Assembly: GCF_018336915.1 (NCBI RefSeq)
Contig: NZ_CP064923.1
Location: forward strand, 4,770,001-4,802,000
Source of the DNA: Acaryochloris marina S15
GTDB lineage: Bacteria > Cyanobacteriota > Cyanobacteriia > Thermosynechococcales > Thermosynechococcaceae
Direction: 5' to 3'
DNA length: 32,000 nucleotides
The number at the start of each line of letters is the position of its first letter. The first letter of the stretch is position 1. A program made the position numbers and the translations under genes. Below are positions 608 through 29,636 of this stretch, piece by piece. A model generated the notes under the pieces. That model worked only from the letters and a program-made list of their open reading frames with translations. It made no database searches and had not been told where the DNA came from.

Positions 608-659
608 TTCACACCAATCGTCCTCAATGATCAGCGCTCAAGGGATTCACTAAGGATTC

Positions 660-1649
660 ATGGTCTTTATTGTTATTTGTTCTATAGTCAGCTGCATATT
701 CAGCATCCTTGGGGTTTACGCCTTAACCAAAACCCTCAAGCAGATATTGATAGATATCCCCAATGAGCGTAGCTCCCATACTCAACCGACTCCTAGAGGA
801 GGGGGGCTAGGATTTATTCTGGCTTTTGCCGTATCGGCCTACCTCAGCCAAACCTTATTCAATGATCCGCAGATTCCCTTTGCTTATCCCCTCTGGTTAC
901 CCTTGACCTTTTTAGTCGGGGTTGGCTGTATGGATGATTGGAAAAATTTGTCGTCGACGTTGAGATATGCGGTACAGCTCTTAGTCGCCTGCATGATTGT
1001 CTGGCAGGGCAATGCCTTTCCCCAGCCGTGGTTAGAGTCGTTGGGAACTGTTGGTTTTTTGGTTGCGATCGCAACCACAATCATCGGCCTGACCGCCTTG
1101 GTCAATTTCTATAATTTTATGGATGGCATGGATGGATTGGTCGGTGGGGTAAGCGCCGTCCAGTTAGGTTTTATGGCGGTTTGGTCTCAAGAGCCCGTTC
1201 TCTGGCTGCTGGTTTCGGCCTTGGTTGGATTTCTTTATTGGAATTGGTCTCCAGCCAAGATCTTTATGGGGGATGTGGGCAGCACCTTTCTGGGGGCGGT
1301 GATGGCAATTACGCTACTTAACCAAACGGGCACTGTAGAAGAGAGTTGGGCCGCTTTGGCCATTACCCTACCAATTACAGGGGATGCCATTTACACCCTG
1401 TGCTGTCGGACCCTTCGTGGTGAAAATATTTTCAAAGCCCATCGGAGTCATGTGTATCAGCGACTGAATCAAGCTGGTTGGAGTCACGGCAAGGTGGCAG
1501 CCCTGTATGTAGGTGTAACAGTTGTATTGGCCCTGCTCATCTATGGCTATGGCGGCTTGGGGGCCTGGATCAGTTTGCTGGGCGTTGCCGTCTCAATTCT
1601 CATTGCTGAACGATATCTGAGTACTCGTAAGCAACCCCTCAACCATTAA
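660..1649 (+). CDS. Glycosyltransferase family 4 / MraY-WecA-like polyprenyl-phosphate HexNAc-1-phosphate transferase
   Basis: 329-aa polytopic membrane protein with the family motifs NFYNFMDGMDGL and IFMGDVGSTFLG. It sits next to an epimerase gene. Confidence 0.85.
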   Translation: MVFIVICSIVSCIFSILGVYALTKTLKQILIDIPNERSSHTQPTPRGGGLGFILAFAVSAYLSQTLFNDPQIPFAYPLWLPLTFLVGVGCMDDWKNLSSTLRYAVQLLVACMIVWQGNAFPQPWLESLGTVGFLVAIATTIIGLTALVNFYNFMDGMDGLVGGVSAVQLGFMAVWSQEPVLWLLVSALVGFLYWNWSPAKIFMGDVGSTFLGAVMAITLLNQTGTVEESWAALAITLPITGDAIYTLCCRTLRGENIFKAHRSHVYQRLNQAGWSHGKVAALYVGVTVVLALLIYGYGGLGAWISLLGVAVSILIAERYLSTRKQPLNH

Positions 1650-1653
1650 ATCT

Positions 1654-2976
1654 CTACAAAACACGCAGCAGACTGGGAATAGAGTCAATAGCTGCCATTT
1701 GGCGAATTTCATCTAAAGCTCGATGAAAATTACCTTCCTGGACATCGTGGGTGACCACCACAATTTCTGCCAGCTCAGCTTTGATACCCGTTTGCACAAT
1801 AGATTCTAAACTCACCCCATGATTACCAAAGACGGTGCCCAACTTGCCGATCACTCCGGGATGATCCTTGGTTAAGAATCGAGCATAGAAGCGGGTGACC
1901 AAGTCATTCATGGGAGCAATATTGCAGTAATGCTGATGAGAACAGGCCAGCAACGGGTGAATACGAGAGGTTTCCGGATCGTTCGCCACAATGCCCGTTT
2001 TCAGCAAGGCCGCAATATTAATTAAGTCGGCAACCACAGCACTGGCAGTCGGACCAGCGCCAGCCCCTGGCCCAAAGAACATCACCTGGCCCAACGGCTC
2101 GGCTTCGATCAGCAAAGCGTTAAAGACATCATTCACATTAGCAAGAGGATGATCGAGGGGGACCAATGTGGGATGAACTCGGGCTTCTAATTGAGGCGGA
2201 GGAAGCTCTGCAGTTGTTGGAGGCACTTTTGCGATCGCAAGTAGTTTGATCACAAATCCCAAGTTCTTGGCATAGTTAATATCCGCTGCACTCACCTGGC
2301 GGATGCCTTCCCGATGGACCTGCTCAAGATCTATCCGTCCTCCAAAGGCTAGGGATGCCAGAATAGCAATTTTATCGCCTGCATCTAAGCCATCGACGTC
2401 AGCAGTTGGATCAGCTTCGGCATACCCGAGATCTTGGGCTTCAGCCAGCACATCATCAAAGGCTGCCCCCGATTGCTGCATCTTGGTCAGAATATAGTTG
2501 GTGGTGCCGTTGAGAATACCGATCAGGGTATGGATCCGATTGGCTCCAAGGGATTCCTTCAGAGGTTGAATCACTGGAATGCCACCTGCCACCGCCGCCT
2601 CAATCATGACGTAGACACTTGCTTGAGTCGCAGCTTGAAAAATTTCTTCGCCATAGCGGGCAATCACCGCTTTGTTAGCAGTGACGACATGTTTGCCCTG
2701 AGCAATGGCTTCTAGAATAAGGGTTCGAGCCGGTTCGAGGCCGCCAATCACTTCAACCACAATGTCGATGGCAGGGTCATTGACGATGGCTCTCAGATCA
2801 GTCGTGAGCACCTCAGCAGGTAGATTCAGGCTGCGCGCTTTCTCTAAAGACCGCACCCCAACTTTGGCAATTTCAATCTCTTGCAAGAGGGGATGTCGGC
2901 CTTTGGGACTCGCAAAGATCTCGCCCACTCCTGTACCTACGGTTCCTAATCCAAGTAAGCCAATTTTGAAACCCAC
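1654..2976 (-). CDS. hom: Homoserine dehydrogenase
   Basis: 440 aa with an N-terminal Rossmann motif (IGLLGLGTVGTG), central catalytic-domain motifs (ILNGTTNYIL, GYAEADPTADVDG.DAGDK) and a C-terminal ACT-like domain. Confidence 0.95.
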   Translation of the reverse strand: MGFKIGLLGLGTVGTGVGEIFASPKGRHPLLQEIEIAKVGVRSLEKARSLNLPAEVLTTDLRAIVNDPAIDIVVEVIGGLEPARTLILEAIAQGKHVVTANKAVIARYGEEIFQAATQASVYVMIEAAVAGGIPVIQPLKESLGANRIHTLIGILNGTTNYILTKMQQSGAAFDDVLAEAQDLGYAEADPTADVDGLDAGDKIAILASLAFGGRIDLEQVHREGIRQVSAADINYAKNLGFVIKLLAIAKVPPTTAELPPPQLEARVHPTLVPLDHPLANVNDVFNALLIEAEPLGQVMFFGPGAGAGPTASAVVADLINIAALLKTGIVANDPETSRIHPLLACSHQHYCNIAPMNDLVTRFYARFLTKDHPGVIGKLGTVFGNHGVSLESIVQTGIKAELAEIVVVTHDVQEGNFHRALDEIRQMAAIDSIPSLLRVL

Positions 2977-3029
2977 GGTTCTGCCCCATCTCGATCACAA
3001 ACCTTATTGTGACATTCAGATTCAAGTCT

Positions 3030-3689
3030 TCAACAAGATGTAGGGAAAATTTGCGGGACTTGCAATCTATTGGCAGTTTCCAAATCCTGAACTGGATAAG
3101 GGGATTCAGCAGGCGTTAGGAGGGCTTCGTAGTTGCCAGACACCACATGCTGCCGCTGCTCTGCCACGAAGTCTGAAATATCTTCAATGTCGATAATCCA
3201 CTCTTGGGCATAGCAGCGAATCGCTTCTCCTCGAAGGCCCAATTGAATCGCTCGCCGTTCCAGCTTATTACCCCCTGGATGATGATCCGGGTCCCACTGC
3301 AAACGCACATCAGAGGTTTGGACCGCCTTTTGCCAAGATTCTTGACTCTCATATAGTCCAGATTGAAAGGATGAATGGACGGCCTGGGCCAAAATCGAGT
3401 CAAAGGCAGCTCGGTGTAGACGAATGGCCAGAATAACTTCTTGGCCTTGCTTAGCACCCCAGCCAGAGCGATACATCATCCACAAAAAGTTGGGCTTAAT
3501 CCACGTCATCCGTGAAAGCTTAAATTCCCCCCCAAAGTAACCCTGTTGAGCAGCAAAATCACCAATGGCAGGTCGATAGGCCTGGTACACGACGATTGAG
3601 TCAGCATCATACTGGGCTAGAATCACTCGTCCTCGCTGGAGCCAGCGGTCTTTTTGGTGGAGATAGGGTTCGGTCTTGATGGTGGACAT
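3030..3689 (-). CDS. DUF4291 domain-containing protein
   Basis: 219 aa. It has the block YQAY...RMTWIKPNFLWMMYRSGWGAKQGQE..LAIRL, which I recognise as the DUF4291 signature. Confidence 0.8.
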   Translation of the reverse strand: MSTIKTEPYLHQKDRWLQRGRVILAQYDADSIVVYQAYRPAIGDFAAQQGYFGGEFKLSRMTWIKPNFLWMMYRSGWGAKQGQEVILAIRLHRAAFDSILAQAVHSSFQSGLYESQESWQKAVQTSDVRLQWDPDHHPGGNKLERRAIQLGLRGEAIRCYAQEWIIDIEDISDFVAEQRQHVVSGNYEALLTPAESPYPVQDLETANRLQVPQIFPTSC

Positions 3690-3783
3690 ACAATTGAATC
3701 AGGAGATACTTTTCGGATGTGTAGCATATTGTAGTATATTCAATTTCCTGACCTACTGTCCATTCATGTCAATTGATGCAGTT

Positions 3784-4227
3784 TTAAAAGTCTCCACTCT
3801 TCTCCTCTGCCAAGTGGAAGGAATACATCACAAAATCCTCAGCTTTTCCTGCAACGGACTGATACAACCTCCGAGCCGGTTGATTCTCCAACTCAGTACC
3901 CACCCACGCTTCTTGACAGCCTAACTCTTGCCCCAAAGCAAATAGGGTCTGCAACAACCGCCTTCCAATGCCTTGTCTTTGATAACTCGACGACACACCC
4001 ACTTCATTAATCCAGAGTTGAATGGGCTTATCAGGATGGAAATACGTCACTGCTGAAGCCATCCCCACCACTCGCTGACCATCACAGGCCACTGCCAGAT
4101 GATGGCGAGGATCGGCTAAAAATGCTGCACTCCATTCTCGGTTCAGCTGATAGTCAAAAACATCCGGTGCCACACAATCTAGGACATGGAGCTGATCAGG
4201 TTGAAGAATGCGAATGACGATTGTCAT
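3784..4227 (-). CDS. GNAT family N-acetyltransferase
   Basis: 147 aa with the acetyl-CoA binding motif A (YQRQGIGRRLLQ) in the expected position. Confidence 0.85.
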   Translation of the reverse strand: MTIVIRILQPDQLHVLDCVAPDVFDYQLNREWSAAFLADPRHHLAVACDGQRVVGMASAVTYFHPDKPIQLWINEVGVSSSYQRQGIGRRLLQTLFALGQELGCQEAWVGTELENQPARRLYQSVAGKAEDFVMYSFHLAEEKSGDF

Positions 4228-4267
4228 GGCCCATCCCTCCGTAAGTATAAGAACTTAGCCTAGCTCA

Positions 4268-4579
4268 ATGGTAGCGTGGGCCTACTGTCCAGATGAGGGG
4301 ATATCAGTCATAGCCAAATTGAAAGAAGCCGTGCTAGCCTGTGAAAAAGATTTTGCATCTTACTTTTATAACAACGACGATGAATTACAGCTCGTTCTAC
4401 AACGGATTGATTATTACCGCCATTCCTTAATCAGTGGTGGGTTCAACGTCGCATTCAATCATTTAGAAACCCGCCTCAAGGCGGTTTTTTTATGGGCCTG
4501 CTTTGAGGCAACTCAGGAGGTCAATCATGAAAAAAGTCGCAGTCTTTGGCAATACCGGTGGAGGGAAATCCACCCTTAG
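4268..4579 (+). CDS. Hypothetical protein (doubtful ORF)
   Basis: 103-aa ORF with no recognisable motif. It contains a terminator-like hairpin plus T-run at 4471-4491 and overlaps the next gene by about 50 nt in another frame. Confidence 0.25.
   Translation: MVAWAYCPDEGISVIAKLKEAVLACEKDFASYFYNNDDELQLVLQRIDYYRHSLISGGFNVAFNHLETRLKAVFLWACFEATQEVNHEKSRSLWQYRWREIHP
4471..4491 (+). terminator. Intrinsic-terminator-like hairpin (CCGCC-TCAA-GGCGG) followed by T7
   Basis: Read directly: 5-bp GC stem at 4471-4475/4480-4484, 4-nt loop, then TTTTTTT at 4485-4491. It lies 36 nt upstream of the ATG at 4527. Confidence 0.4.
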
Positions 4580-5045
4580 CGCTCAATTAGCAGAGGTAAC
4601 GGGTTTACCCCTCTATGTCTTAGACAAAATCCAATACAAAGCCGGAGGCGAAAAGGTATCACAATCCGTTTATCGGGCCACTCATGATCAGATCCTGCGA
4701 GAAGAAGCCTGGGTGATCGATGGATTTGGCTGTATAGAGACCTTATGGGAACGACTCAAGACTGCAGACACCCTGGTCTATCTCGATTTGCCGTTGTATA
4801 TCCATTTTGCCTGGGTGACCAAACGGATGATCACGGGATTTGTGCAACTGCCTTCAGGCTGGCCTGAGGGAAGCCCCATCCTTAAAAGCAGCCTGAATAG
4901 TTATCGGACATTGTGGCTATGCTATCGGTATTTGACACCGCGATATCGCGATTTTGTGGGCCAAGCCAGGGAGACTCAAACGGTGTATCACCTCAGATCA
5001 GTTCCTGATATCTCGCAGTTTTTAACCACATTGGCCAATGCATAA
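4527..5045 (+). CDS. P-loop NTPase, adenylate-kinase / topology-modulation (FlaR)-like
   Basis: Walker A motif VAVFGNTGGGKST sits at the N-terminus. The start was moved from the track's 4503 to the ATG at 4527, which is preceded by AGGAGG (4515-4520). Confidence 0.8.
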   Translation: MKKVAVFGNTGGGKSTLSAQLAEVTGLPLYVLDKIQYKAGGEKVSQSVYRATHDQILREEAWVIDGFGCIETLWERLKTADTLVYLDLPLYIHFAWVTKRMITGFVQLPSGWPEGSPILKSSLNSYRTLWLCYRYLTPRYRDFVGQARETQTVYHLRSVPDISQFLTTLANA

Positions 5046-5217
5046 GTCGTGCAGGGGAGTGGCCATGGGGTTCCAGCATAGACGAGCCAGCCAATATTGC
5101 TCAATCAGCTGTCTCGTCTCGCTTAGAAACTACATGCCATTCTCAAAACTGATCGTTACACCTGTATCCGGTATATCCTGTTAAATTGTCGGTATCGCGC
5201 AGCGGAATAGTTAAGAC

Positions 5218-6492
5218 GTGATTGATTTAAAGCAGCTAAGGGATAATCCTGAAGCCTTTGCAGAACGCCTCAGTCGGCGAGGTGACTATGATTTGCAAGC
5301 TATTTTGGACCTGGATCAAAAACAGCGCGAACTAGAAACCGAGCGATCGCAACTGCAAGCCCAAAGTAACCAAATTGGCAAAACCATTGGTGAACGGATG
5401 AAAGGGGGTGCCAATCCCAAAGATCCAGAAATCCAAGACCTACGGCAGGAAGGCAGTAGTGTCAAAGCAACCCTGAGCGATCTAGAACCGAAAGAGCGGG
5501 ATCTCAAAGCCCAAATTGGGGAGCTACTGCTGACGATCCCGAATTTACCCAGTGACGATACACCAGTGGGTAAAGATGAAACCGCCAATGTAAAAGTGAA
5601 GCAGTGGGGAGATGAATACATTCCCAAAAACGCCAAACTGGCCCATTGGGAGATTGGCGAAAATCTAGGGATTTTGAACTTTGAGCGCTCTGTCAAAATT
5701 GCTCAAAGTCGATTTGTCACGCTGATTGGGGCAGGGGCTGCCCTTGAACGCGCCCTGATTCAATTCATGCTGGACCAGCAGGTGGAAGCGGGCTATATCG
5801 AAGTGTTACCACCCGTTCTAGTCAACAGTGACTCGTTAACAGCCACCGGACAACTTCCCAAGTTTGCCGAAGAAAGCTTCAAATGTGCTGAGGATGATTT
5901 GTGGCTCAGCCCGACGGCTGAAGTCCCCGTCACTAACCTCTATCGGGATGAGATTCTCAACGCCGATGATCTGCCTATTTTTCACTGCGCCTATACTCCT
6001 TGTTTTCGCCGGGAAGCGGGGAGCTATGGTCGCGATACTCGGGGACTGATTCGACTCCACCAGTTTAATAAGGTGGAATTGGTCAAGCTGGTTCATCCCA
6101 GTACCTCTGCTGCCGAACATGAAGCCCTGGTCAAAAATGCAGCTGCTATCCTCGAAGCATTGAAGCTTCCTTACCGGGTCTTACAGCTCTGTACTGGGGA
6201 TTTAGGATTCTCTGCAGCTAAATGCTATGACCTAGAAGTGTGGCTACCCTCGGCTGATTGTTATCGAGAGATTTCGAGCTGCTCCAACTTCCAGGACTTC
6301 CAAGCTAGACGCGGAAATATCCGCTTTAAGGAATCCGGACAGAAAGGAACCCAGTTTGTCCATACTCTCAATGGTTCAGGATTGGCCATCGGTCGCACGA
6401 TGGCTGCCGTGCTCGAAAATTATCAACAGCCAGATGGATCTGTGCAGGTGCCAGAGGTCTTGCAACCCTATTTGAAACGCAAAGTCTTGTAA
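5218..6492 (+). CDS. serS: Seryl-tRNA synthetase
   Basis: 424 aa with an N-terminal coiled-coil tRNA-binding arm and class II motifs ([33 protein letters not shown]). GTG start. Confidence 0.97.
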
Positions 6493-6742
6493 ACTGCCGA
6501 AGCGACGGACCTTCTACAATAGGTGGGACACTGACAGGGGAGTCTCTATCTGTAAGCAATCTCTTGTTTGAGTCAGAGGTTTGCCGTTAGCGACCTCAAT
6601 GTCGACCTGCTGCAAACGAGTCAATATTGCTAGAGATATTTGAGAGAACTGTCGTTCTAATACTGTGGGGATCAGTGCAGGTATCTGACCATTGAGCCGT
6701 CTCTTTTCTAGCCCAAGTTCAGTAAAGGGAGAATAATTTTCT

Positions 6743-7690
6743 ATGCGTCTGAATCGTGTCCTAGCCTTAGCGTTAGTGACTTTATGTTTAATTGCAGCCT
6801 TAGGAAACTGGTTAGGCGGATCGATTAACAAAAGCAAAGCCAAAGGCTCTGCTAATGTCGCCCAAATCAATGTTTATGGTGTGATTAGCGATGAAGCCTC
6901 TGGCGGTCCTTTCAGTTCTGGAGAAGGGGCCAACGCCAATAAGTTGATCAGCAATATTAAGAAAGCGAGGGAGGATGATGGAATTAAAGCCATTCTGCTC
7001 CGGATTAACAGTCCTGGCGGCACGGCTGCAGCCTCTCAAGCTGTATATGAAGAGCTGATGCGAACCCGTCAAGAAACGGATATCAAAATTGTCGCTAGCT
7101 TGGGGGATGTTGCCGCCTCAGGGGGATATTACATTGCCAGTGCGGCCGATCATATTGTTGCTAATCCCTCTTCGATCACAGGATCCATTGGGGTGATTGT
7201 GCAAACCCAAAATGTGACGTCTCTCCTCGATAAGATTGGGGTCCAAACCAGCACGATTAAAAGTGGCCCCTTGAAAGATATTTTGTCGCCGTTCCGGGAA
7301 ACTAAGCCAGAAGAGCGCAAAATATTGCAGTCGGTAGTAGATGAGTCCTATAAGCAGTTTCTAGATGCCATCGTGGCTGGACGGGGCATGTCCCTGGAGA
7401 AATTAAAGCCTTTGGCAGATGGTCGAATTTACACTGGGACCCAGGCAAAAGACAAAAAGCTCGTGGATTCCCTCGGAAATTACTACGATGCGTTGAACAA
7501 GACGGCTGAACTAGCCAAAATTTCCGGTGAACCGAAGGTACGGGATTTTGGCAAAGGCAGTTTCTTTGGGGATTTCGGTCCGTTTCTATCCACGTCTAAT
7601 CAACAACTCCCCCAGCTAACGACGGAATGGCTCTCTTCAGAATCCCAATTGCCCCGTTGGCATAAGATTCCGCTGACGATCATGGAGTAA
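6743..7690 (+). CDS. sppA: Signal peptide peptidase SppA, 36K type
   Basis: 315 aa with an N-terminal signal anchor and S49 peptidase motifs (INSPGG, AASGGYYIA, GSIGV). RBS-like GGGAGA lies upstream. Confidence 0.9.
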   Translation: MRLNRVLALALVTLCLIAALGNWLGGSINKSKAKGSANVAQINVYGVISDEASGGPFSSGEGANANKLISNIKKAREDDGIKAILLRINSPGGTAAASQAVYEELMRTRQETDIKIVASLGDVAASGGYYIASAADHIVANPSSITGSIGVIVQTQNVTSLLDKIGVQTSTIKSGPLKDILSPFRETKPEERKILQSVVDESYKQFLDAIVAGRGMSLEKLKPLADGRIYTGTQAKDKKLVDSLGNYYDALNKTAELAKISGEPKVRDFGKGSFFGDFGPFLSTSNQQLPQLTTEWLSSESQLPRWHKIPLTIME

Positions 7691-7693
7691 GCG

Positions 7694-8227
7694 ATGCTAG
7701 ATGCCCTGTTTACAACCTTCTTTGGTTCTCAATCTTCCCGCAATACTCAATCTGTCTCGATCCTGATTGGCTTTGTACTCCTCAGTATTCTGTCCTTGAA
7801 TGCAGCAGGAAAAGTAGGGGCAGGCATTGGGGGGGTAATTATTTTCTTCCTGCTGTTTTTAGTGGCGGGTCTATTAGGTGGACTTTGGTTAGCCGCCGCC
7901 TTTAACTTTTTTGCTCAACTCTTAGGGGGACAAGGCACGGCCCAAGATAGCTTACGGGCCGTGCTGCTTGGCCTATGGCCGTTGATGGTATCTGGACCTG
8001 CGATCGCAGCGTCGCAGTGGCCCGGTATTGCAGGTCAATTTTTAGGTCTGTTACTGGGGCTAGTCGTCCTGATCGGCACTTTGCTCACCCTAACCCGATC
8101 CATTGGCCAAGCCCATCAACTGAAGTGGGGTAAGGCCTTATTGACGGTTGCCTTAACGGCTGTAAGCTCTATGCTGGCTTGGTTAGGGTTAATTCTCTGG
8201 CCCCTCGTTTTGGTCTTGGGCTTGTAG
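7694..8227 (+). CDS. Hypothetical integral membrane protein
   Basis: 177 aa with about 5 hydrophobic segments. It starts 3 nt after the sppA stop, so it is probably co-transcribed, and is followed by a strong terminator. Confidence 0.7.
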   Translation: MLDALFTTFFGSQSSRNTQSVSILIGFVLLSILSLNAAGKVGAGIGGVIIFFLLFLVAGLLGGLWLAAAFNFFAQLLGGQGTAQDSLRAVLLGLWPLMVSGPAIAASQWPGIAGQFLGLLLGLVVLIGTLLTLTRSIGQAHQLKWGKALLTVALTAVSSMLAWLGLILWPLVLVLGL

Positions 8228-20505: not shown

Positions 20506-22260
20506 TCATTCTCTCACCTCTCGAATATCATGAATATTCCACGTTACTTTGCCTAAAGCCGTATATTGGGTGCCTTCAAAGTCATTTCGGACTGCTGCTA
20601 GGGCCAACGGATTAATCAGATAAATAAAGGGTAAGTACTCCTGGGCAATCTGTTGAGTCTCCGCATAAATCGCTTTGCGTTTGGCCTCATCGATCTCTTG
20701 AGCACCTTGAATATAGAGATCGTCAATCTTCTGTTCCCAGTCGCTAACCGTAAAGCCTTGGATGGGTTCACTAGGGGGCTGGGGTTTTTGATTAAACATA
20801 TGTAGGCCCCCTTCTGGAGACCAGACATTCGCACCCGTATTGGGTTCTAAACCACCCGTTAACCCCAACAAAGCGCAGTCCCAATCTAATGAGTCACTCA
20901 ATTTATCAACCATCGTGTTGAAGGCAATGGGGGTATAGTCCACTTTTATGCCGACTTTCGATAAATCTTGCTTAATTTGGGCTCCTAATGTACTACCTGC
21001 AGGGGCCATCAGCGTAAAACGAACTGGATTATCCTTGTCATCAAAAAGTTGTCCTTTATTTTTGGTGGTAAACCCAGCGTCTTTCAGAAGTTGCTTGGAT
21101 TTCTCCGGATCATAGTTGTAAACCTTCAGGCCTTCTTCAGGAGATAGGTAATAAGGACTTTGAACCGATATCGACGAATTTTGGGGTAAACCTAGTCCTT
21201 GATAGGTATTAGCCAGCATTCGCTCTCGATCAATGGCATAGGCAACAGCTTGGCGAAATTTGACGTTATTAAACCATCGCGACTTCACAGGGTTGACTAG
21301 AGGCTTGTTGTTTCTGCGTCCTCGATTGAGGTTAAAGAGAATAAAGGTCGTGCCAAAATCAGGCCCCCCTTCATAGATGGTGAAGTTACCAGCCTTTTCT
21401 TCCCGCTTCAGGAGCGAAAACGTACTGGCCCGCACCCCTACAGAATCTAATCCACCCGAGCGGAATTGTAGAAGAGCCGTATCGGGAGATTCGACAATTT
21501 TCCAAATAATGCGCTCAATATTCCCGTTGGCACGACCAGGGATTTGATAGCGCCAATAAAACTGGTTGCGTCGAAACACGACTCGCTGGTTGGTTTCGTA
21601 GGATTCGAGCTGGTAAGGCCCATTGACAATAATTTCCCTGGGGTCCGTATCGACCCCCCAAGCAGAAATGAATTGGGGATTGCCTTTGCGATCTGGCGTA
21701 TCCACCAATTTCTTGAGGGCATGGGCCGGCAAAATATTAACGGCCCCAGCAGTCCGCAGAAATGGGGCAAAGGGTTCCGGAATGGAGAACTCTACTCGCC
21801 GGTCATCTAGTTTTCTGACCTTGGGCAAGGCCCGACTTTTACCAATTCTGAGAACATCGCGAGTATCAGTAGGAATAGCTTCATTCAGATAGACATCGTT
21901 ATAGGAAAAAACAACATCATCTGCTGTTAAAGCAACCCCATCTGACCATTTCAGATTAGGTCGGAGGGTAAAGATAATTGTGAGTTTATCGGCAGAGAAT
22001 TCCCAAGACTCCGCAAGGGCAGGCTCAATCTCGCCTGTAAGACCATTCTGGGTCGTTAATCCTTCATAAATCAAGCCGAAGACATTGTTGGCTTCTTGAC
22101 TTTGGGAAGAATTAAACGTTTTAGGGGCACTCAGCAGGGTATCTACATACTGGGGCACCCGTGCCGTTTGGGTTTTGAATTGGGAGAGGCTACAGCCAGG
22201 GAGTGCGATCGCAACCACCAATACCAAACTCAAAGCCACCCACCGACGCAGAAAAGCCAT
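20506..22260 (-). CDS. ABC transporter substrate-binding protein, family 5 (peptide-type), lipoprotein
   Basis: 584 aa with a lipobox (ALPGCS). It is a paralogue of the SBP at 15601-17415 but has no adjacent permease or ATPase genes. Confidence 0.9.
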   Translation of the reverse strand: MAFLRRWVALSLVLVVAIALPGCSLSQFKTQTARVPQYVDTLLSAPKTFNSSQSQEANNVFGLIYEGLTTQNGLTGEIEPALAESWEFSADKLTIIFTLRPNLKWSDGVALTADDVVFSYNDVYLNEAIPTDTRDVLRIGKSRALPKVRKLDDRRVEFSIPEPFAPFLRTAGAVNILPAHALKKLVDTPDRKGNPQFISAWGVDTDPREIIVNGPYQLESYETNQRVVFRRNQFYWRYQIPGRANGNIERIIWKIVESPDTALLQFRSGGLDSVGVRASTFSLLKREEKAGNFTIYEGGPDFGTTFILFNLNRGRRNNKPLVNPVKSRWFNNVKFRQAVAYAIDRERMLANTYQGLGLPQNSSISVQSPYYLSPEEGLKVYNYDPEKSKQLLKDAGFTTKNKGQLFDDKDNPVRFTLMAPAGSTLGAQIKQDLSKVGIKVDYTPIAFNTMVDKLSDSLDWDCALLGLTGGLEPNTGANVWSPEGGLHMFNQKPQPPSEPIQGFTVSDWEQKIDDLYIQGAQEIDEAKRKAIYAETQQIAQEYLPFIYLINPLALAAVRNDFEGTQYTALGKVTWNIHDIREVRE

Positions 22261-22328: not shown

Positions 22329-23408
22329 TTAAGTCGGGTCAGCAGCAGGAGTACTCTCCGTACTCACAGGCAAAACAGGGGGCTGAATATAATCGGCAGG
22401 GGGTTCTCCGGTTAGGGATTCTAGAAAGGCAACAATATCTCCTGCTTCCGCATTAGACAGATCTTTACCCAACTGGGTGTTGGCCATTTGCACCACAGCA
22501 GCTTTCAGAGATTTGACCGAACCATCATGAAAATAGGGACCGGTCTCAGCTACGTTGCGCAGAGAAGGCACTTTAAATAGCATCCGGTCATCGTCACTTC
22601 CAGTCACTTTGTAGCGCCCTTGATCATCTTGGTTCGGCCAAGGATTAACTCGACCGGCTTTTTGATAGGTGTTACCGCCCAAATAAGTGCCGTTATGACA
22701 TTGAGCACACCCTGCATCCGTAAAGAGGGTTAGACCCCGTTTTTGTTTGGCATTGAGAGCGGTTTGGTCGCCAGCAAAGTAGCGATCAAAAGGGGCAGGC
22801 GTCACCAATCCTCGCTCAAAAGAACCAATAGCTTGACCCAGGTGATCATAAGTCACGGACGGTTTGTCTTGGGGAAAGGCTGTGGCAAAGGCTTCCACAT
22901 ATTCCGGCATAGAATTAAGGACTTTGAGAACCTGAGCCTCGGAAGGCATCGCCATCTCTACTGGATTGAGAATTGGGCCTTTAGCCTGGGCTTCTACATC
23001 AGCAGCTCGGCCATCCCAGAATTGAGCCACATGGGAAGCGGCGTTATACACCGAGGGAGAATTACGTCCCCCGAGTTGTCCCTTGTGGCCAGGAGAAAAA
23101 GGCTGGTTATCAACGCCATAGTGATCGAGCTGATGGCAGCTATTGCAGGAAATATCCTGATTTTTGCTGAGGCGCTTTTCAAAGTAGAGGCTCCGGCCTA
23201 AGGCTACTAGCTCAGGATCGGCAGGCTGCTGTTGGGGATAGAAATTCTCGGGTAAGGGCGGACCAAATAAGGCGAGGTTGGGGACTTCATCGGCAATCGC
23301 AACATCCGAAACGCAGAGCAACATCAACAAAGTCGCTGCCAATACTACCCAAAACACAATCAACCGCTGAATCTTATCGCGGGTTCCGTGATGCCATTGC
23401 AAAGTCAT
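22329..23408 (-). CDS. Di-haem cytochrome c peroxidase (CCP/MauG family)
   Basis: 359 aa with an N-terminal anchor and two CxxCH haem motifs (CNSCH and CAQCH). It also has the conserved FKVPSLRNV...PYFHDGS block. Confidence 0.9.
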   Translation of the reverse strand: MTLQWHHGTRDKIQRLIVFWVVLAATLLMLLCVSDVAIADEVPNLALFGPPLPENFYPQQQPADPELVALGRSLYFEKRLSKNQDISCNSCHQLDHYGVDNQPFSPGHKGQLGGRNSPSVYNAASHVAQFWDGRAADVEAQAKGPILNPVEMAMPSEAQVLKVLNSMPEYVEAFATAFPQDKPSVTYDHLGQAIGSFERGLVTPAPFDRYFAGDQTALNAKQKRGLTLFTDAGCAQCHNGTYLGGNTYQKAGRVNPWPNQDDQGRYKVTGSDDDRMLFKVPSLRNVAETGPYFHDGSVKSLKAAVVQMANTQLGKDLSNAEAGDIVAFLESLTGEPPADYIQPPVLPVSTESTPAADPT

Positions 23409-23580
23409 GGGCCACCTCTCCTCTTAGAAAACTCTATGGGCGCAAGCTGCACTCCACTCAAATTTTATGAGTTAGCCAAAAGTGAATGACGACCCGTAAG
23501 AAAACGTGATGGCTCCATGACGTTTTGGCACAAAACCATACATAGCTTCGAAGTTCGCAAGAAAAGGTTGAACTCAATCA

Positions 23581-23700
23581 TTAACCCTTCAATATCAATG
23601 GAGATGTCATCTATGGACAGATCCTTAAGGGGATTATCGCCCATGGGGGAAAGCTATCCTGAGAGATTTTTCTCGTAAGGCTGCCACCCTTGCAAAGTCA
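23581..23700 (-). pseudogene. Decayed copy of the 3' end of the AsmA-like gene (relic fragment)
   Basis: It aligns by eye with 26213-26345 at roughly 75-80% identity. One frame encodes GDNPLKDLSIDDISIDIEG, compared with GDNPLKNFPIDDIPIDDIPIDIGD in the intact gene. Upstream it is frameshifted, and one 15-nt repeat unit is missing. Confidence 0.6.
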
Positions 23701-23989
23701 GATGCAGCTCACAACAATGCCTTCATGGCACTTCCAAACCGAGTAATTGCAATCACTCGGTAACTGGCAAAGGCTGATCGCTTTGTCTGAGGTGAAGCAA
23801 TAACGCCCAGTTACCATCTACTGACTGTTTTATTTTTTTTCAATGACGACCGAAAATGCTCTCCAGAACTTGCTTAAAAACCTTGATACGTTCGCTTACA
23901 GATGGTTAATATCTAAGTTTCTAAATTCTTCATGTGTCAGGTCATCTTTTTTATACGTTTAACATAAAATAGCTCTGACGCTTGAGATC

Positions 23990-26092
23990 ATGATGCTAGG
24001 CATCCAACCATTTAGAGCGGCTTTAACCCCACTCCAAAAAGCTTTTACCTGTATTTGTTGTTCATCCATGTACCTGACTCGTCTTGTTCACTCTAAGACC
24101 CTGCTGTTATTGCGAGAGGCATTTACATCCCTCTTGCCTGTCGTCTTAGTGATGAATATTATCGTTTTGCTGTCAGGTCTGTCTGGCCTGCTGGCATCTC
24201 AGAGCGTGGTAGCAGAGAGTTTCATCAACGGGAATGAAGTCAGCCGACTCTATTTCTTTTTAGTCCCGTTTTTTCTCAACATTTCCCTGAGCACCCTAAT
24301 GGCCAAGGAGAAAGATCTGGATCAGGTGAGTACTGTTCTGATCTCAGTCGTTTGTTTTTTGCGGGTGTCGGGCTTTTTGTTTATCGATTCGACAGGCCAA
24401 ATCCTCTCGTTTCAAGGTTCAGTGCTCACTAGTATTCCAGCCACACTGGTAGCAGTCACACTACTCCATTACTTCAGTCGATTCTCTGCTCTGCAATTTT
24501 TTAGAGGTCGATCTGAGGTGAGTCCAGCCCTCCAAAGAACCCTGAACCTCCTGATTCCAGGTCTCCTAACAGTGTTGTGTTTTGAGTTAATCGGCCAAGG
24601 ATTTAGGCTATTTTTTAAGACTGGTCTGTTCAGTTTTTTATTCGAAATCCTACCTAAATTGCAAGCCACCCAAGAAGTCATTCTCTTTAAGCTAATTTCT
24701 CAACTTTCTTGGTTTTTCGGGATTCATGGCGAGTATAGTGCCGATGGTCTATTTCGAATTTTGAATGCGATTCCATCCTCTGAAGCTGGCAGTATTCACT
24801 TCAAAGTTTTGCATGATGTTTTTATGAATATTGGAGGGTCTGGCTCCACTTTCGTCGTGCCATTGGCGATTCTTTTTCTACCCGGATCTACCCAATTCAA
24901 ACCCATTGCGCAGCTGAGTCTGCCATTCGCACTCTTCAATGTGAATGAGATTTTATTGTTCGGACTTCCGATTATTCTAAATCCACTCTTTCTGGCACCG
25001 TTTCTGTTAGCTCCGCTGGTCAATATGGCTATTGCGCTGACTGCAATTCACTGGGGAGCATTCACCATTAGTGCGACTGCCATAAACTGGATGTCTCCGC
25101 CTTTATATAGTGCCTATGCGGCCTCTGGAGGATCGGGAGGGGCGGTACTGACCCAGTTCCTTTGCATCGTTATCGATATGGGTATCTACTATCCATTTCT
25201 GGTTCTGGCAAAGCAGCAGTCCAATACTCCACGTGCGCTCCGCAAGCTCTTGGATGGTGATGCCTACCAGTTTGTGAATAGAGAAATCAATCGCCAAGAA
25301 GAGCGGCGTTTTATGACTCAGAAAATGGATCAAGTCCAAGACATGGAAGAGGTCCAACGCTTACTACAGCAACTCAAAGGCGGGCAGTTTCTCCTCTACT
25401 TTCAGCCTAAGGTAGATGCCCAGTCGAAAGCACTCGTTGGCTTAGAAACGTTGCTGCGTTTCCAAGATGCAGGGGGTAACATTGTCCCCCCTACGTTTTT
25501 GCCGATCCTCTACCAACAGGGCTTATCTAAGGCTATAGATCAAAAAGTGCTGTCGCTTGTTTTTGACCAGATCAAACAGTGGCGAGGGAATGGTCAAGGA
25601 TTTCCTCAGATTAGTATTAACCTGGATAAACATTTTTTATTAGATCCACCCTCTGTAAAGACTTTGATTGCTAAAGCCAGACAAGAAGGGATTTGCTTTG
25701 AACTAGAAATTACTGAACATACCTACACTTCGGAAGTGAAATCTTTGGCATCAGTGGTTCGTGACCTTCGATCTGCTGGGCATCAAGTTTCAATTGATGA
25801 TTTTGGGGCAGGCTATTCTTCCCTCACAACCTTAGTTTCTCTGGAAGCAGATTCGGTCAAATTAGACCGCAAGCTGGTCGTCGCCCCTGAAGGGGAAATC
25901 CAGCGGGGACGAGTGTTACTAGAGTCTAGTGTGAAGCTCTGTCATGACTTAGGATTTTCTGTGGTGGCAGAAGGAATTGAAAACTTGTCTCAGTTACAAC
26001 TAGTGCAACACTGTGGAGTAGATTTCGTGCAAGGGTATTACACAGGCAAACCCATGCCTGCTAATCAGGTCAGTCGCCTATTTCAGGCGTAA
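23990..26092 (+). CDS. PTS EIIC (lactose/cellobiose-type) domain / EAL domain fusion protein, putative c-di-GMP phosphodiesterase
   Basis: 700 aa. Residues ~30-420 are polytopic and carry EIIC motifs (LSWFFGIHG, NIGGSGSTF, LFNVNEILLFGLPIILNPLFLAPF, ASGGSGGAVLTQ). Residues ~455-695 carry EAL motifs (FQPKV...GLETLLRF, SINLD, ELEITEH, SIDDFGAGYSSL, VKLDRKLV, VAEGIEN, QGYYTGKP). Confidence 0.9.
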   Translation: MMLGIQPFRAALTPLQKAFTCICCSSMYLTRLVHSKTLLLLREAFTSLLPVVLVMNIIVLLSGLSGLLASQSVVAESFINGNEVSRLYFFLVPFFLNISLSTLMAKEKDLDQVSTVLISVVCFLRVSGFLFIDSTGQILSFQGSVLTSIPATLVAVTLLHYFSRFSALQFFRGRSEVSPALQRTLNLLIPGLLTVLCFELIGQGFRLFFKTGLFSFLFEILPKLQATQEVILFKLISQLSWFFGIHGEYSADGLFRILNAIPSSEAGSIHFKVLHDVFMNIGGSGSTFVVPLAILFLPGSTQFKPIAQLSLPFALFNVNEILLFGLPIILNPLFLAPFLLAPLVNMAIALTAIHWGAFTISATAINWMSPPLYSAYAASGGSGGAVLTQFLCIVIDMGIYYPFLVLAKQQSNTPRALRKLLDGDAYQFVNREINRQEERRFMTQKMDQVQDMEEVQRLLQQLKGGQFLLYFQPKVDAQSKALVGLETLLRFQDAGGNIVPPTFLPILYQQGLSKAIDQKVLSLVFDQIKQWRGNGQGFPQISINLDKHFLLDPPSVKTLIAKARQEGICFELEITEHTYTSEVKSLASVVRDLRSAGHQVSIDDFGAGYSSLTTLVSLEADSVKLDRKLVVAPEGEIQRGRVLLESSVKLCHDLGFSVVAEGIENLSQLQLVQHCGVDFVQGYYTGKPMPANQVSRLFQA

Positions 26093-26212
26093 TCCAATGC
26101 GTTACTGCCAAACCAGCACTTACTATGAGCTGAAACTGGTCTGGGATTCATTATGAAGTAACACCAGGCTGCTTTACACCATAGTCCTTCAGCCTCTAGG
26201 CAAACGGCTGAC

Positions 26213-26953
26213 TTAGGGAATCAAGTCTCCAATATCAATGGGGATGTCATCAATAGGAATATCGTCAATGGGAAAGTTCTTGAGGGGATTATCGCCATCA
26301 AGCTTGAGGGGAAAGCCATCTTGAGGAATTTTTTCGAGTAAAGCAGTGGTTACGGCATTTGCGATCGCAACCGACAATTTTCCCTCTGCATTTTTAGAGG
26401 TCACATCCGTCAACTCAATATCGCTGATATCAAGATCCTCTTCGATGCCAAAATCACCAATGGCAGTGACTTTAATGGAAGCTTTGATATTACGGATACT
26501 GAGGCGACCAATCTTAACCACCTTCTCGTTACCGCTGCTTTCAGGCTGATCCTTTTCTTGCAGGGTATCAACCACTTTCACCAAATTATTGTCTGGAATC
26601 TGTTGCTCCACCTTCAGATCCAATCCGTTGACGGTCAGGGATTCAATGTCCACCTGATCTTGCCAAAGGTTGGAGAGCTGAAAATCTAAATCTAAATTTT
26701 GGACTTTAATCAGATGAGGCGTGGAAAATCCATCGGGATTCTTGAGGGTAATGGCTTTAATGGTCAAATCCCCAGCGAAGGGCTGAAAGTTGAGTCCCTC
26801 TACATCCGTATTCACGCCCGTCGTATCTTTAATGGCCCCTTCTAGGGCTGACTCAATGATGCCATTGCGACTAAACCAGCCAATTCCCAATGCGAGAACT
26901 GCGATCGCAACTCCGCCACCCAAAATCTTTAATGCACGCTTCGCCATAGCCAC
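26213..26953 (-). CDS. Membrane-anchored AsmA-like / DUF748-like protein with C-terminal (P/S)IDDI repeats
   Basis: 246 aa. An N-terminal anchor is followed by a beta-rich region resembling the AsmA N-terminal pattern (GV.TDVEGL.F.PF.G.L.I..I.L.NP.GF..P.L..V..L). The acidic tail is PIDDIPIDDIPIDIGDLIP. The coding call is firm; the family call is tentative. Confidence 0.6.
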   Translation of the reverse strand: MAMAKRALKILGGGVAIAVLALGIGWFSRNGIIESALEGAIKDTTGVNTDVEGLNFQPFAGDLTIKAITLKNPDGFSTPHLIKVQNLDLDFQLSNLWQDQVDIESLTVNGLDLKVEQQIPDNNLVKVVDTLQEKDQPESSGNEKVVKIGRLSIRNIKASIKVTAIGDFGIEEDLDISDIELTDVTSKNAEGKLSVAIANAVTTALLEKIPQDGFPLKLDGDNPLKNFPIDDIPIDDIPIDIGDLIP

Positions 26954-26963
26954 CCTGCACTGA

Positions 26964-26989
26964 GAACTGCCGCGCTAGCACGGCAGTTC
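26964..26989 (-). terminator. Strong hairpin between gnd and the AsmA-like gene (no U-tract)
   Basis: Perfect 9-bp stem GAACTGCCG / CGGCAGTTC with an 8-nt loop, 33 nt past the gnd stop. No T-run follows on either strand, so a terminator role is uncertain. Confidence 0.35.
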
Positions 26990-27021
26990 CAGCTTATCCC
27001 ACAAAAATCCAGCTTGGGAAA

Positions 27022-28452
27022 CTAGCTGTTGGACTCATTAATAGCAGTCCATTCCGTATGAAACGTCCCTTCCTTGTCAATCCGCTGATAGGTATGGGCA
27101 CCAAAGAAATCGCGCTGGGCCTGGGTTAGGTTTTGGGGCAGGCGATCACGGCGATAGCTATCAAAGTAATCCAAAGAAGCACTAAAGGCCGGGACTGGAA
27201 TACCGAGCTGAGCTGCAGTGGCCATCACTTCTCGCCAGGCTTGCTGACGGTCCAAAATGGTCTGCCGAAACTCAGGAGCAAGCAGTAGGTTGGCTAGGGC
27301 CGGATCATCGGCAAAGGCTGACTTGATCTTGTCCAAGAAGCTCGCCCGAATAATACAGCCCCCCTTCCAAATCCGAGAGATTTCACTCAAATTCAGATTG
27401 AAATTAAATTCCTTTGAAGCGGCACTCATCAAAGCCATGCCCTGAGCATAGGAGCAAATCTTGGAGCAATAAAGGGCATCTCGAACTTTGCCAATAAAGG
27501 CTTGCTTGTCGCCACTAAAGGTGGCCGTGGGTCCGGTCAAGATTTCAGCAGCCTTAACCCGCTCATCCTTAAAAGATGAGGTAATTCGAGCATTCACAGC
27601 TGCTGTAATCGTGGGGATGGGTACGCCTAATTCCAAGGCACTCATCACGGTCCAACGGCCTGTGCCTTTCTGGCCTGCTTTATCCAAAATTAGCTCGACT
27701 AGAGGCTGCTGGGTACCTGGATCAACGTAGGTAAAAATTTCAGCCGTAATTTCCACCAAAAAGGAATTCAGTTCATCCGTGGTGTTCCACTCACTAAACA
27801 CCTCATGCAGTTCTGTATGACTCAGTCCTAGAACATTTTTGAGCAGGTCATAGGCTTCGGCAATCAGCTGCATATCGCCATATTCAATGCCGTTATGGAC
27901 CATTTTGACGTAGTGACCTGCACCCCCTGGGCCAATATAGGTGACGCAAGGCCCGTCATCCACCTGAGCCGCAATTTTCGTCAGAATTGGAGACAGATCT
28001 TTATAGGCTGCTTCTGTGCCTCCGGGCATCAGACTGGGACCGTTCAGCGCCCCTTCTTCACCACCACTAACGCCCATGCCGATGAAGCGCAAGCCAACTG
28101 CTTCTAGCTCTTCTGTGCGGCGAACTGTATCTCCATACAAAGAGTTACCGCCATCAATCAGCACATCGCCTGGCTCTAGCATGGGCTTAAGCTGCTGAAT
28201 CACCGCATCCACAGGTGCGCCAGCTTTCACCATGATCATGATGCGTCGAGGACGGGCAAGGGATGCTACGAGTTCTTCGGGCGTAAACGCGGCGACCACT
28301 TGTCGTCCTTGGGCCCGCTCCGCCATAAAGGCATCTGTTTTTGCTCGTGTCCGATTGTAGACAGCGATGGGAAAACCATTGCGCTCAACGTTGAGGGCTA
28401 GATTTTCCCCCATGACCGCGAGGCCAATCAGTCCAAATTGTTGCTGGGGCAT
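27022..28452 (-). CDS. gnd: 6-phosphogluconate dehydrogenase, decarboxylating
   Basis: 476 aa with the N-terminal GLIGLAVMGENLALN Rossmann motif and the conserved GAGHYVKMVHNGIEYGDMQLI and GTGRWT blocks. Confidence 0.97.
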   Translation of the reverse strand: MPQQQFGLIGLAVMGENLALNVERNGFPIAVYNRTRAKTDAFMAERAQGRQVVAAFTPEELVASLARPRRIMIMVKAGAPVDAVIQQLKPMLEPGDVLIDGGNSLYGDTVRRTEELEAVGLRFIGMGVSGGEEGALNGPSLMPGGTEAAYKDLSPILTKIAAQVDDGPCVTYIGPGGAGHYVKMVHNGIEYGDMQLIAEAYDLLKNVLGLSHTELHEVFSEWNTTDELNSFLVEITAEIFTYVDPGTQQPLVELILDKAGQKGTGRWTVMSALELGVPIPTITAAVNARITSSFKDERVKAAEILTGPTATFSGDKQAFIGKVRDALYCSKICSYAQGMALMSAASKEFNFNLNLSEISRIWKGGCIIRASFLDKIKSAFADDPALANLLLAPEFRQTILDRQQAWREVMATAAQLGIPVPAFSASLDYFDSYRRDRLPQNLTQAQRDFFGAHTYQRIDKEGTFHTEWTAINESNS

Positions 28453-28706: not shown

Positions 28707-28734
28707 TCTGCTTCCTTAAATTTAAGGAAGCAGA
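28707..28734. promoter_or_regulatory. 28-bp perfect palindrome TCTGCTTCCTTAAA|TTTAAGGAAGCAGA
   Basis: Read directly: the two 14-nt arms are exact reverse complements with no spacer. It lies in the region upstream of gnd, 64 nt from the IS1 end. Its function (operator or hairpin) is unknown. Confidence 0.4.
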
Positions 28735-28806: not shown

Positions 28807-29307
28807 TCAAACAATTGTGGGGTAGGTGAGTATGTCATCCCAATGCCAAGCTCGCGAGGCTAGATCAGCACGTTGTGCCGCCGTTGTTTTAAGCCGACTG
28901 TGTGTCCAAATCCAATTGAAATAGCTGACCACTAATCGAGCAGTGACTTTGGTTTGCGCCCACACTTTGCCAAATTTGTTCTGGCGTCGATGCCATCGAC
29001 CACTGTGCTGTCGAATAATGCCATTGGTGCGTTCGAGTCGTTGAGTTCTGTCCTTGCCAATGTAATGGTCAATCTCCCAAGGCAACACTCTTTCGTAACC
29101 ACCCCAATCGTCGCTATTCCAGTCCTTGCAATCGGTCTTACCTTCAGTGCTAGTCACCAGTTCATTCAATAATGAATCGGTGTGCTTGCCCACACGACAC
29201 GAGAGGATCACGCCGCTTGTGTTTGCCAAGGTAATCGCCATCCAACAATCACCCATCTCTAGCTCATGGGGAAGACAGTGTTTTTGCTTTTTTTCACAAA
29301 GGACCAC
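28807..29307 (-). CDS. insB: IS1 family transposase catalytic part (InsB frame), expressed by -1 frameshift as InsAB'
   Basis: It lies in the -1 frame relative to insA. A shift at GTG-AAA-AAA-AGC (plus-strand T7 at 29290-29296) would give ...DEMWSFVKKKQKHC..., joined to a DDE-type core. Confidence 0.85.
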   Translation of the reverse strand: MVLCEKKQKHCLPHELEMGDCWMAITLANTSGVILSCRVGKHTDSLLNELVTSTEGKTDCKDWNSDDWGGYERVLPWEIDHYIGKDRTQRLERTNGIIRQHSGRWHRRQNKFGKVWAQTKVTARLVVSYFNWIWTHSRLKTTAAQRADLASRAWHWDDILTYPTIV

Positions 29308-29636
29308 ATTTCATCTGCACTGACATCCTCCGTTTCAACGGCTTGCACTTGGCCATTATGGAGTTGCTGAGATCGTTGGCTAGCAGCTCTTACTAGAGAG
29401 ACTACAGTGTTGTAAGCCAGGCCACTGGTCCGAGTGATACCTCGAAGACTACTCCCTTCTGCATGGGCTTGGAGAACTTGTCGGACCTGCTCTGGACTCA
29501 CCTGACGACGATAGTAAAGGGTATCAAAGCGTTCAGTAAAGGTCTGCTGGCACTCAGGACAACGGTATCGTTGAAGCATGTTGGGCATCTTGCCATGCTT
29601 GTGTGCTTTGGAATGACCGCATAGTGGGCATTGCAT
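29259..29636 (-). CDS. insA: IS1 family InsA-like protein (zinc finger + HTH), upstream frame of the transposase
   Basis: CPLCG...CPEC zinc-finger pairs and an HTH region. It ends just after the DEMWSFVKK motif at the A7 run. Confidence 0.85.
   Translation of the reverse strand: MQCPLCGHSKAHKHGKMPNMLQRYRCPECQQTFTERFDTLYYRRQVSPEQVRQVLQAHAEGSSLRGITRTSGLAYNTVVSLVRAASQRSQQLHNGQVQAVETEDVSADEMWSFVKKSKNTVFPMS

Follow-up and report, generated by a model that had tools for sequence, protein, structure and literature searches.

A PTS EIIC-EAL gene behind an AsmA-like gene in Acaryochloris marina, bracketed by two copies of the AsmA gene end

The stretch of DNA analysed here, called the window below, is 32,000 nt of the Acaryochloris marina S15 genome (contig NZ_CP064923.1, positions 4,770,001 to 4,802,000 of the forward strand), numbered from its first letter. 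It carries a gene for a phosphotransferase system (PTS) EIIC domain joined to an EAL domain, which lies between ccp, a cytochrome c peroxidase gene, and a gene of the AsmA/DUF748 family for a protein of 246 amino acids (aa), referred to below as the AsmA gene. The EIIC-EAL gene is bracketed by two diverged copies of the AsmA 3' end in the same orientation. The original prediction, made from the letters alone, had proposed that the EIIC-EAL gene arrived by insertion into, or a duplication at, the 3' end of the AsmA gene. Its insertion with duplication of that end is supported by empty sites in related genomes and by the colinearity of the decayed copy with the gene end at those sites. The locus is laid out as follows, in window coordinates.

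20506-22260, minus strand: SBP gene, neighbour of ccp
22329-23408, minus strand: ccp, di-haem cytochrome c peroxidase (PF03150), adjoining the AsmA gene in insert-free genomes
23409-23573, minus strand: native flank from the AsmA stop to ccp, beginning on the minus strand with TTCAACCTTTTCTTGC and, by the alignments, left unchanged by the insertion
23574-23681, minus strand: left repeat copy, read here as the displaced, decaying original AsmA 3' end; the former stop at 23574-23576 reads GAG
23682-23855, unstranded: inner end of the insert by homology breakpoints, specific to clade A (defined below), with no homology to the AsmA body
23856-24067, plus strand: upstream region of the EIIC-EAL gene common to clade B (78-80% identity), plus the first 26 codons of its open reading frame (ORF)
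23990-26092, plus strand: EIIC-EAL cargo gene between ccp and AsmA, mechanical ORF of 700 aa (Pfam, NCBIfam)
26093-26212, unstranded: 120-nt spacer between the convergent EIIC-EAL and AsmA stops, the outer end of the insert
26213-26349, minus strand: right repeat copy, the functional AsmA 3' end, from codons TALLEK… to the stop
26213-26953, minus strand: intact AsmA/DUF748-family gene (246 aa), the putative insertion target (Pfam, homologues, C-terminal alignment)
27022-28452, minus strand: gnd (6PGD match)

The direct repeat and the genes around it

The diverged direct repeat is real. The repeat finder paired 23580-23671 with 26220-26333 in direct orientation (families D1, D2 and D5). Gapped blastn of 23400-23990 against 26093-27021 gave 68/96 identities with E = 2e-10, and a second segment gave 27/32 with E = 3e-5. 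The local Smith-Waterman score was 34, as compared to 9.7 ± 1.4 (maximum 18) for 1000 dinucleotide-preserving shuffles (z = 16.8). The left copy had no other match anywhere in the whole window. These alignments bear out the similarity noted earlier between the left segment and the last 40 or so codons plus stop of the 246-aa gene, and the exact runs and the peptide (GDNPLKDLSIDDISIDIEG) quoted at that time were all found in the sequence. In the refined extent the left copy covers 23574-23681 and the right copy 26213-26349, possibly with about 4-12 nt past the stop on either side; the 12 or so nt nearest the AsmA stop (26201-26212) may still be part of the duplicated segment. The duplicated length is about 126-134 nt, comprising the last 40 or so AsmA codons, the stop and a few bases past it.

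The 246-aa protein matched PF05359 with 61.2 bits (cut-off 50) and PF05170 with 41.3 bits (cut-off 29.8). It is short and covers only the N-terminal 190 or so positions of these long models, and its homologues in the database are confined to Acaryochloris and Acaryochloridaceae. Near its end lie 15-nt PIDDI units, which number three in the window, P0001 and L007, two in most strains, and fewer in proteins of the L011/L012 type. The left copy had been said to lack one such unit. It is instead the window's functional copy that has an extra one, most relatives having two. The C-terminus at 26228-26275 is a slippage-prone, weakly constrained tail with a variable number of units.

The cargo gene encodes a PTS EIIC membrane domain of the lactose/cellobiose type (PF02378, 61 bits, 1.3e-16) followed by an EAL cyclic di-GMP (c-di-GMP) phosphodiesterase domain (PF00563, 191 bits, 2.3e-56). 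Both scores are above the gathering scores, and NCBIfam models matched as well. The translation contains ETLLR, N, ELEITE, DDFGAGYSS, KLD, EGIE and QGY, which we take to be the EAL signature motifs. By its domains the predicted product belongs to the PTS_EIIC-EAL c-di-GMP phosphodiesterase family, of which 244 database homologues with PF02378 before PF00563 were found in cyanobacteria, Vibrio, Pseudomonas and others. According to PMC8846402, c-di-GMP proteins rarely have PTS_EIIC as their sensor domain. The cargo in itself is nothing unusual. The domain matches of this gene (PF02378 and PF00563, 700 aa), the AsmA gene (PF05359 and PF05170), ccp (PF03150) and gnd (6PGD) all agree with the identities proposed earlier. 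In strains CCMEE 5410 (locus L003) and MBIC11017 (locus L008) an in-frame stop falls within the first 26 codons of the ORF (equivalent to 23990-24067), and the annotated protein has 674 aa. The true start of the EIIC-EAL gene is likely Met27 at 24068, and the first 26 codons of the mechanical ORF are probably untranslated.

The insert is about 2.5 kb long, and the EIIC-EAL gene is its sole ORF, which leaves no space for an integrase gene. No integrase, transposase or terminal inverted repeats were found in the insert. The original prediction had put the guanine-plus-cytosine (GC) content of this stretch at about 40%. The actual value between the repeats is 44.9%, and the AsmA gene itself has 45.3%. 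GC at third codon positions (GC3) is 45.2% in the EIIC-EAL gene, within the 44.6-54.1% of the other long ORFs of the window. A foreign origin on grounds of composition was rejected, as both GC and GC3 are unremarkable. Terminator and promoter scans of the insert gave the counts expected from shuffles, the spacer at 26093-26212 between the convergent genes had no significant fold, and an Rfam search of 23200-26400 at E ≤ 1 returned no match. A near-perfect 24-nt palindrome lies at 23738-23761 (ACCGAGTAATTGCAATCACTCGGT), about 55 nt from the inner edge of the left copy. It is kept in all clade-A copies and is followed on the minus strand by TTTGG; its fold z-score is only about -2.

Site states in related genomes

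Twenty-odd related loci were retrieved for comparison. The order gnd-AsmA-EIIC-EAL-ccp-SBP was found in the window, L015 (= L029), L025-L028, L001, L022, CCMEE 5410 and MBIC11017. Three other Acaryochloris loci (L009, L010 and L023) have gnd-AsmA-ccp-SBP without the EIIC-EAL gene, so that ccp and the AsmA gene are adjacent where the cargo is absent, as had been predicted. In L007 the slot holds a different ORF of 355 aa with no Pfam match. More distant relatives have gnd-AsmA-Uma2 and no EIIC-EAL gene, and the nearest EIIC-EAL genes outside Acaryochloris (67-68% aa identity) adjoin an ABC transporter, not the AsmA gene. A metagenome scan with the conserved flank pattern gave one unrelated chance match and no further site states.

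The junctions of empty and occupied sites were compared. In the empty genomes the AsmA gene ends …GATATTGAAGAGTTGATTCCTTAG and continues directly into TTCAACCTTTTCTTGC… up to the ccp start. The left copy of the window reads …GATATTGAAGGGTTAATGATTGAG, followed by the identical TTCAACCTTTTCTTGC… flank, and its colinearity with the empty-site gene end continues upstream through the ALLEKIPQDG… codons. The left copies of the window and of five close relatives are colinear with the empty-site AsmA 3' end plus the native flank all the way to the ccp start. This identifies the left copy as the original gene end, displaced from its gene. In every genome the functional AsmA gene can be aligned up to and including the stop; occupied sites part from empty ones 4-12 nt later. 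On these alignments the cassette is placed between the original gene end and a second copy that now serves the AsmA gene.

The relic is present in six clade-A assemblies (the window, L015 = L029, and L025-L028) in two haplotypes. In haplotype 1 (window, L025-L027) 14 nt are deleted at the relic's inner edge, and in haplotype 2 (L015, L028) 11 nt are deleted from its middle. When both are combined, the relic begins at CCACTGCCTTAC (codons T-A-L-L) and is reconstructed as about 122 nt of coding sequence including the stop, plus 4-12 nt past it. All copies have in common a 1-nt deletion, a deletion of about 7 nt, and a cluster of five substitutions (TCCCTAG to GATTGAG) by which the stop was lost. 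Within clade A the relic has changed by about 7% plus indels, as compared to 2-4% in its neighbours. Frame-breaking deletions that are independent in the two haplotypes, and faster change than in neighbouring non-coding DNA, indicate unconstrained decay. The left copy is frameshifted, as had been noted earlier. The relic does not extend into the AsmA body (score 10 vs. a shuffle mean of 11), and tblastn gave a match of 16 aa only.

The relic carries the derived codons GAT AAT CCC CTx (GDNPL), as do the functional ends of the occupied genomes, whereas the empty and outgroup genomes have GDSPI. Because these derived codons are common to both copies, both probably go back to one resident sequence, or a very close relative of it, and not to a distant donor; this sharing is read from a segment of only about 120 nt, in which gene conversion is possible.

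The native flank (23409-23573, about 165 nt) was compared in the window, L003, L007-L010, L015 and L023. It is 89-98% identical between clades vs. 86-87% for ccp coding sequence. RNAalifold drew a long imperfect hairpin in it, with no compensatory changes and no Rfam match. This stretch is probably the promoter and leader of ccp.

Age and later history of the insert

In trees of the flanking genes L010 is basal. Clade A contains the window, L015 and L001, and clade B contains L003 and L008 with L007 and L009. Identity between the clades is 84-85% for the EIIC-EAL gene, 85% for AsmA, 86-87% for ccp and 88% for gnd. The synonymous divergence (dS) of the EIIC-EAL gene between clades is 0.61-0.63, as compared to 0.63-0.81 for gnd, AsmA, ccp and SBP, and its tree agrees with the flanking-gene clades. 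As the EIIC-EAL gene has diverged like its neighbours, the cassette was therefore in place before clades A and B split. The ratio of nonsynonymous to synonymous divergence (dN/dS) of the EIIC-EAL gene between clades is 0.11, which is the mark of purifying selection, and by this measure it reads as a working gene.

The relic has fared differently in clade B. MBIC11017 keeps the last 25 or so nt of the old gene end and TAG, joined to the native flank, and CCMEE 5410 keeps TAG only. Between this vestige and the EIIC-EAL upstream region lie about 0.9-1.2 kb with a decayed insA of the IS1 family of insertion sequences, vs. 172 nt in clade A. The remnant matched the insA of an IS1-like element in the window itself (tblastn, E = 2e-27). 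It is found only in clade B, so it arrived later. The original prediction had named the gene at this site without the repeat, in a relative, as a finding that would speak against an insertion. CCMEE 5410 is formally such a case; the erosion of its relic beside the IS1-family remnant explains it as secondary loss, and the proposal of an insertion stands. A perfect 30-nt palindrome centred on a HIP1 site (GCATTATTTATGCGATCGCATAAATAATGC) lies at about 14.1 kb in L008 (gap coordinates 1135-1165); a 270-nt deletion in CCMEE 5410, as compared with MBIC11017, falls at exactly this place.

In L007 the first 12-14 or so nt past the stop are those of the occupied genomes, and the cargo ends at TAG|TTCAACC. 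This suggests that the cargo may have been replaced in this lineage. The 355-aa ORF (L007 2238-3817) is convergent with the AsmA gene, has a lipoprotein-like N-terminus, and stops about 20 nt from the AsmA stop.

L009 is empty and by sliding-window identity is nearest to clade B along the whole region, yet its AsmA gene has the ancestral GDSPIK end. With this end, L009 does not look like the simple product of recombination between the two copies. Import of an empty allele from a basal lineage was considered, and sliding-window identity shows no clear patch in L009.

Beyond gnd, an IS1-family element lies at 28807-29636 on the minus strand. It consists of overlapping insA-like (125 aa) and DDE (166 aa) ORFs in the usual frameshift arrangement. 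A perfect 28-nt palindrome at 28707-28734 stands between gnd and this element. The far side of gnd also varies by strain: L001 has a type I restriction-modification system (565-8055), CCMEE 5410 an IS4-type transposase (L003 15105-16708), and L022 toxin-antitoxin genes (5336-7356).

Origin of the arrangement and known parallels

We consider it probable that a cassette of about 2.5 kb was inserted once, long ago, behind the AsmA gene, and that host recombination or repair duplicated the AsmA end in the process. The target would have been a gnd-AsmA-ccp-SBP locus in the ancestor of the A. marina-like strains. The cassette, made up of an upstream region of about 0.3-0.4 kb, the EIIC-EAL gene and the 120-nt spacer, would have been placed immediately behind the AsmA gene, and the joining would have left about 126-134 nt of target on both of its sides. 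The two copies, presumably nearly identical at formation and both taken from the resident gene or a very close relative of it, would then have parted ways. The one joined to the body of the gene went on serving as the AsmA 3' end, and the one on the ccp side lost its function and is decaying as a pseudogene fragment. Later the relic was eroded in MBIC11017 and CCMEE 5410 by IS1-family insertion and deletions, and the cargo would have been replaced in L007. Recombination and repair functions of the cell itself probably brought the insertion about, rather than a transposase or an integrase encoded on an element. One candidate route is single-crossover (Campbell-type) entry of circular DNA with about 130 nt of homology to the AsmA end. 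The other is homology-anchored or illegitimate joining in which the two junctions overlapped by about 130 nt on sister chromosome copies; many cyanobacteria are polyploid.

Two other routes were rejected. Insertion of a transposon or insertion sequence should give a duplication of 2-14 bp, not about 126-134 nt, and the insert has neither terminal inverted repeats nor a transposase. The IS1-like genes at 28807-29636 stand 2.5 kb off the insert. A tandem duplication followed by deletion should have left the spare copy next to whatever follows the duplicated unit. The relic instead adjoins the native post-stop flank, which excludes this route, and no further AsmA homology lies upstream of the relic.

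Several observations weigh against a single, vertically inherited insertion by host enzymes. The distal 62 nt of the relic are 90% identical to the functional end of CCMEE 5410. This exceeds the expectation for neutral sequence at a synonymous divergence of about 0.3 per lineage, although it does not go beyond what neighbouring non-coding DNA shows (4.5-10% change per lineage). The different cargo of L007 ends at the same nucleotides, which is a possible hint of site preference. L009 is empty within an occupied clade and carries GDSPIK, and the history of the locus therefore includes recombination between lineages. A single insertion that spread by way of flanking homology would be as compatible with the data as strict vertical descent. 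Finally, no source locus of the cassette was found with which the junctions could be compared for microhomology, and the mechanism seems to have left no diagnostic trace.

Of the other explanations, the one that survives best derives the insert from an island or prophage that entered by means of an integrase. Its attP would have borne a copy of the AsmA 3' end, site-specific integration would have restored the gene while pushing its native end aside, and the integrase and remaining genes would later have been deleted. The architecture fits, with an intact gene end within the insert and a displaced C-terminal pseudogene at its far side. The uninterrupted target site is present in L009, L010 and L023, the different cargo of L007 ends at the same base, and the far side of the insert is variable (172 nt in clade A vs. 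about 0.9-1.2 kb in clade B), so that material could have been lost there. However, none of the 11 occupied loci inspected for recombinases has an integrase or a fragment of one, in accord with the earlier report that the insert has none, and the clade-B insA of the IS1 family is their only trace of a mobile element. Given the derived states that the relic has in common with the functional end, the insert-borne copy is not visibly foreign, and the cargo consists of one signalling gene of a housekeeping-like kind, with the composition and divergence of its neighbours. We regard this origin, which nothing positively supports, as unlikely.

A related proposal is that the last 130 or so nt of the AsmA gene, with the breakpoint TAG|TTCAACC, are a recurrent docking site for single-gene cassettes that use a recombinase supplied in trans. 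Three different contents have been found behind the AsmA gene, namely the EIIC-EAL gene, the 355-aa protein of L007 and, in more distant relatives, Uma2. The right-hand breakpoints of L007, L003 and the relic coincide to the base, and L007 has in common with the EIIC-EAL-bearing genomes the 12-14 or so nt that follow the stop. Even so, such a site seems to us quite improbable.

The occupied state might instead be ancestral, the left copy having come from a separate small duplication or gene conversion and the empty sites from later deletions between the copies. Recombination between the copies would yield scar-free empty sites, so the empty sites alone do not fix the polarity, and L009 is empty and nested in an occupied clade. 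However, the left copy is contiguous with the exact post-stop sequence of the empty genomes, which a random dispersed duplication would not give. The basal L010 and L023 are empty, more distant relatives have no EIIC-EAL gene at the AsmA gene, and the end of L009 is GDSPIK, not the GDNPLK of both copies in the occupied genomes. We hold an occupied ancestor to be highly improbable.

It could also be argued that selection maintains the left copy, whether for a small protein that it encodes or for a role in the control region upstream of ccp. Gene callers place an ORF of 59-63 aa over the relic in some assemblies, and the distal 62 nt are about as conserved as the adjoining regulatory flank. The start of this ORF differs from one haplotype to the other, which shows that it is not a gene, and it has no Pfam, NCBIfam or Rfam match. 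The haplotypes differ in their frame-breaking deletions as well, the relic changes faster than its neighbours within clade A, and clade B is nearly without it and has an intact ccp. Selection on the left copy is thus extremely doubtful. A chance or low-complexity match from the 15-nt PIDDI-type tandem units, which do make up the family D1 part of the similarity, has virtually no probability left, since the match runs well past the periodic part (GGGGATTATCGCC, GGGAAAGC…TTTTTC), is colinear with the orthologous gene ends of other genomes, and stands far above the shuffles (z = 16.8); it is refuted by the junction colinearity together with these statistics.

An old insertion of the cassette by host recombination or repair would be a well-documented case of an uncommon outcome of gene gain, in which one chromosomal gene was added with a target-end duplication of about 130 nt and no mobile-element machinery. 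The empty sites, the intact relic, the eroded relics and the cargo replacement are all still visible in sister lineages. Such a case would show that an architecture with a rebuilt gene end is not proof of an integrative element. It would also mean that a rare EIIC-sensor c-di-GMP phosphodiesterase was acquired before the clade of MBIC11017 and CCMEE 5410 parted from that of the window, and it marks the AsmA-ccp junction as a variable spot in Acaryochloris. The event is of a known type and opens no new mechanism or long-standing question.

Three known systems offer a comparison. Islands at tRNA or tmRNA genes, or at the 3' ends of other genes, are similar in that a direct repeat of the target 3' end brackets the acquired DNA and empty sites are found in relatives. 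These islands have integrases and usually an atypical composition, in contrast to the insert described here, which has neither. A closer likeness is provided by e14 and phage 21, which according to a statement in PMC13626634 (citing Hill et al. 1989) integrate in icd of E. coli and leave icdC, a C-terminal pseudogene. There, too, the insert lies within or at the 3' end of a coding gene, a copy of the end at the near edge keeps the gene intact, a displaced C-terminal pseudogene stands at the far edge, and recombination between the copies would restore the empty site. Unlike e14, which is 15 kb long, has its own integrase and is excised upon SOS induction, the insert behind AsmA is one cellular gene in 2.5 kb without a recombinase. 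Both copies of the end appear to come from the same resident sequence, and the arrangement has been stable to a dS of about 0.6 between clades.

C-terminal displacement in Rhs loci and in the effector-immunity arrays of the Vibrio cholerae type VI secretion system has been attributed to homology-facilitated illegitimate recombination (PMC5361080, PMC3240628). It resembles the AsmA locus in that homology on one side and illegitimate joining on the other push a gene end downstream as an orphan, with no need for a mobile-element enzyme. The Rhs and type VI secretion genes gain a different, functional C-terminal domain, and do so recurrently, forming arrays. At the AsmA locus the end would merely have been duplicated, in one event that left one relic and an unrelated, convergent cargo.

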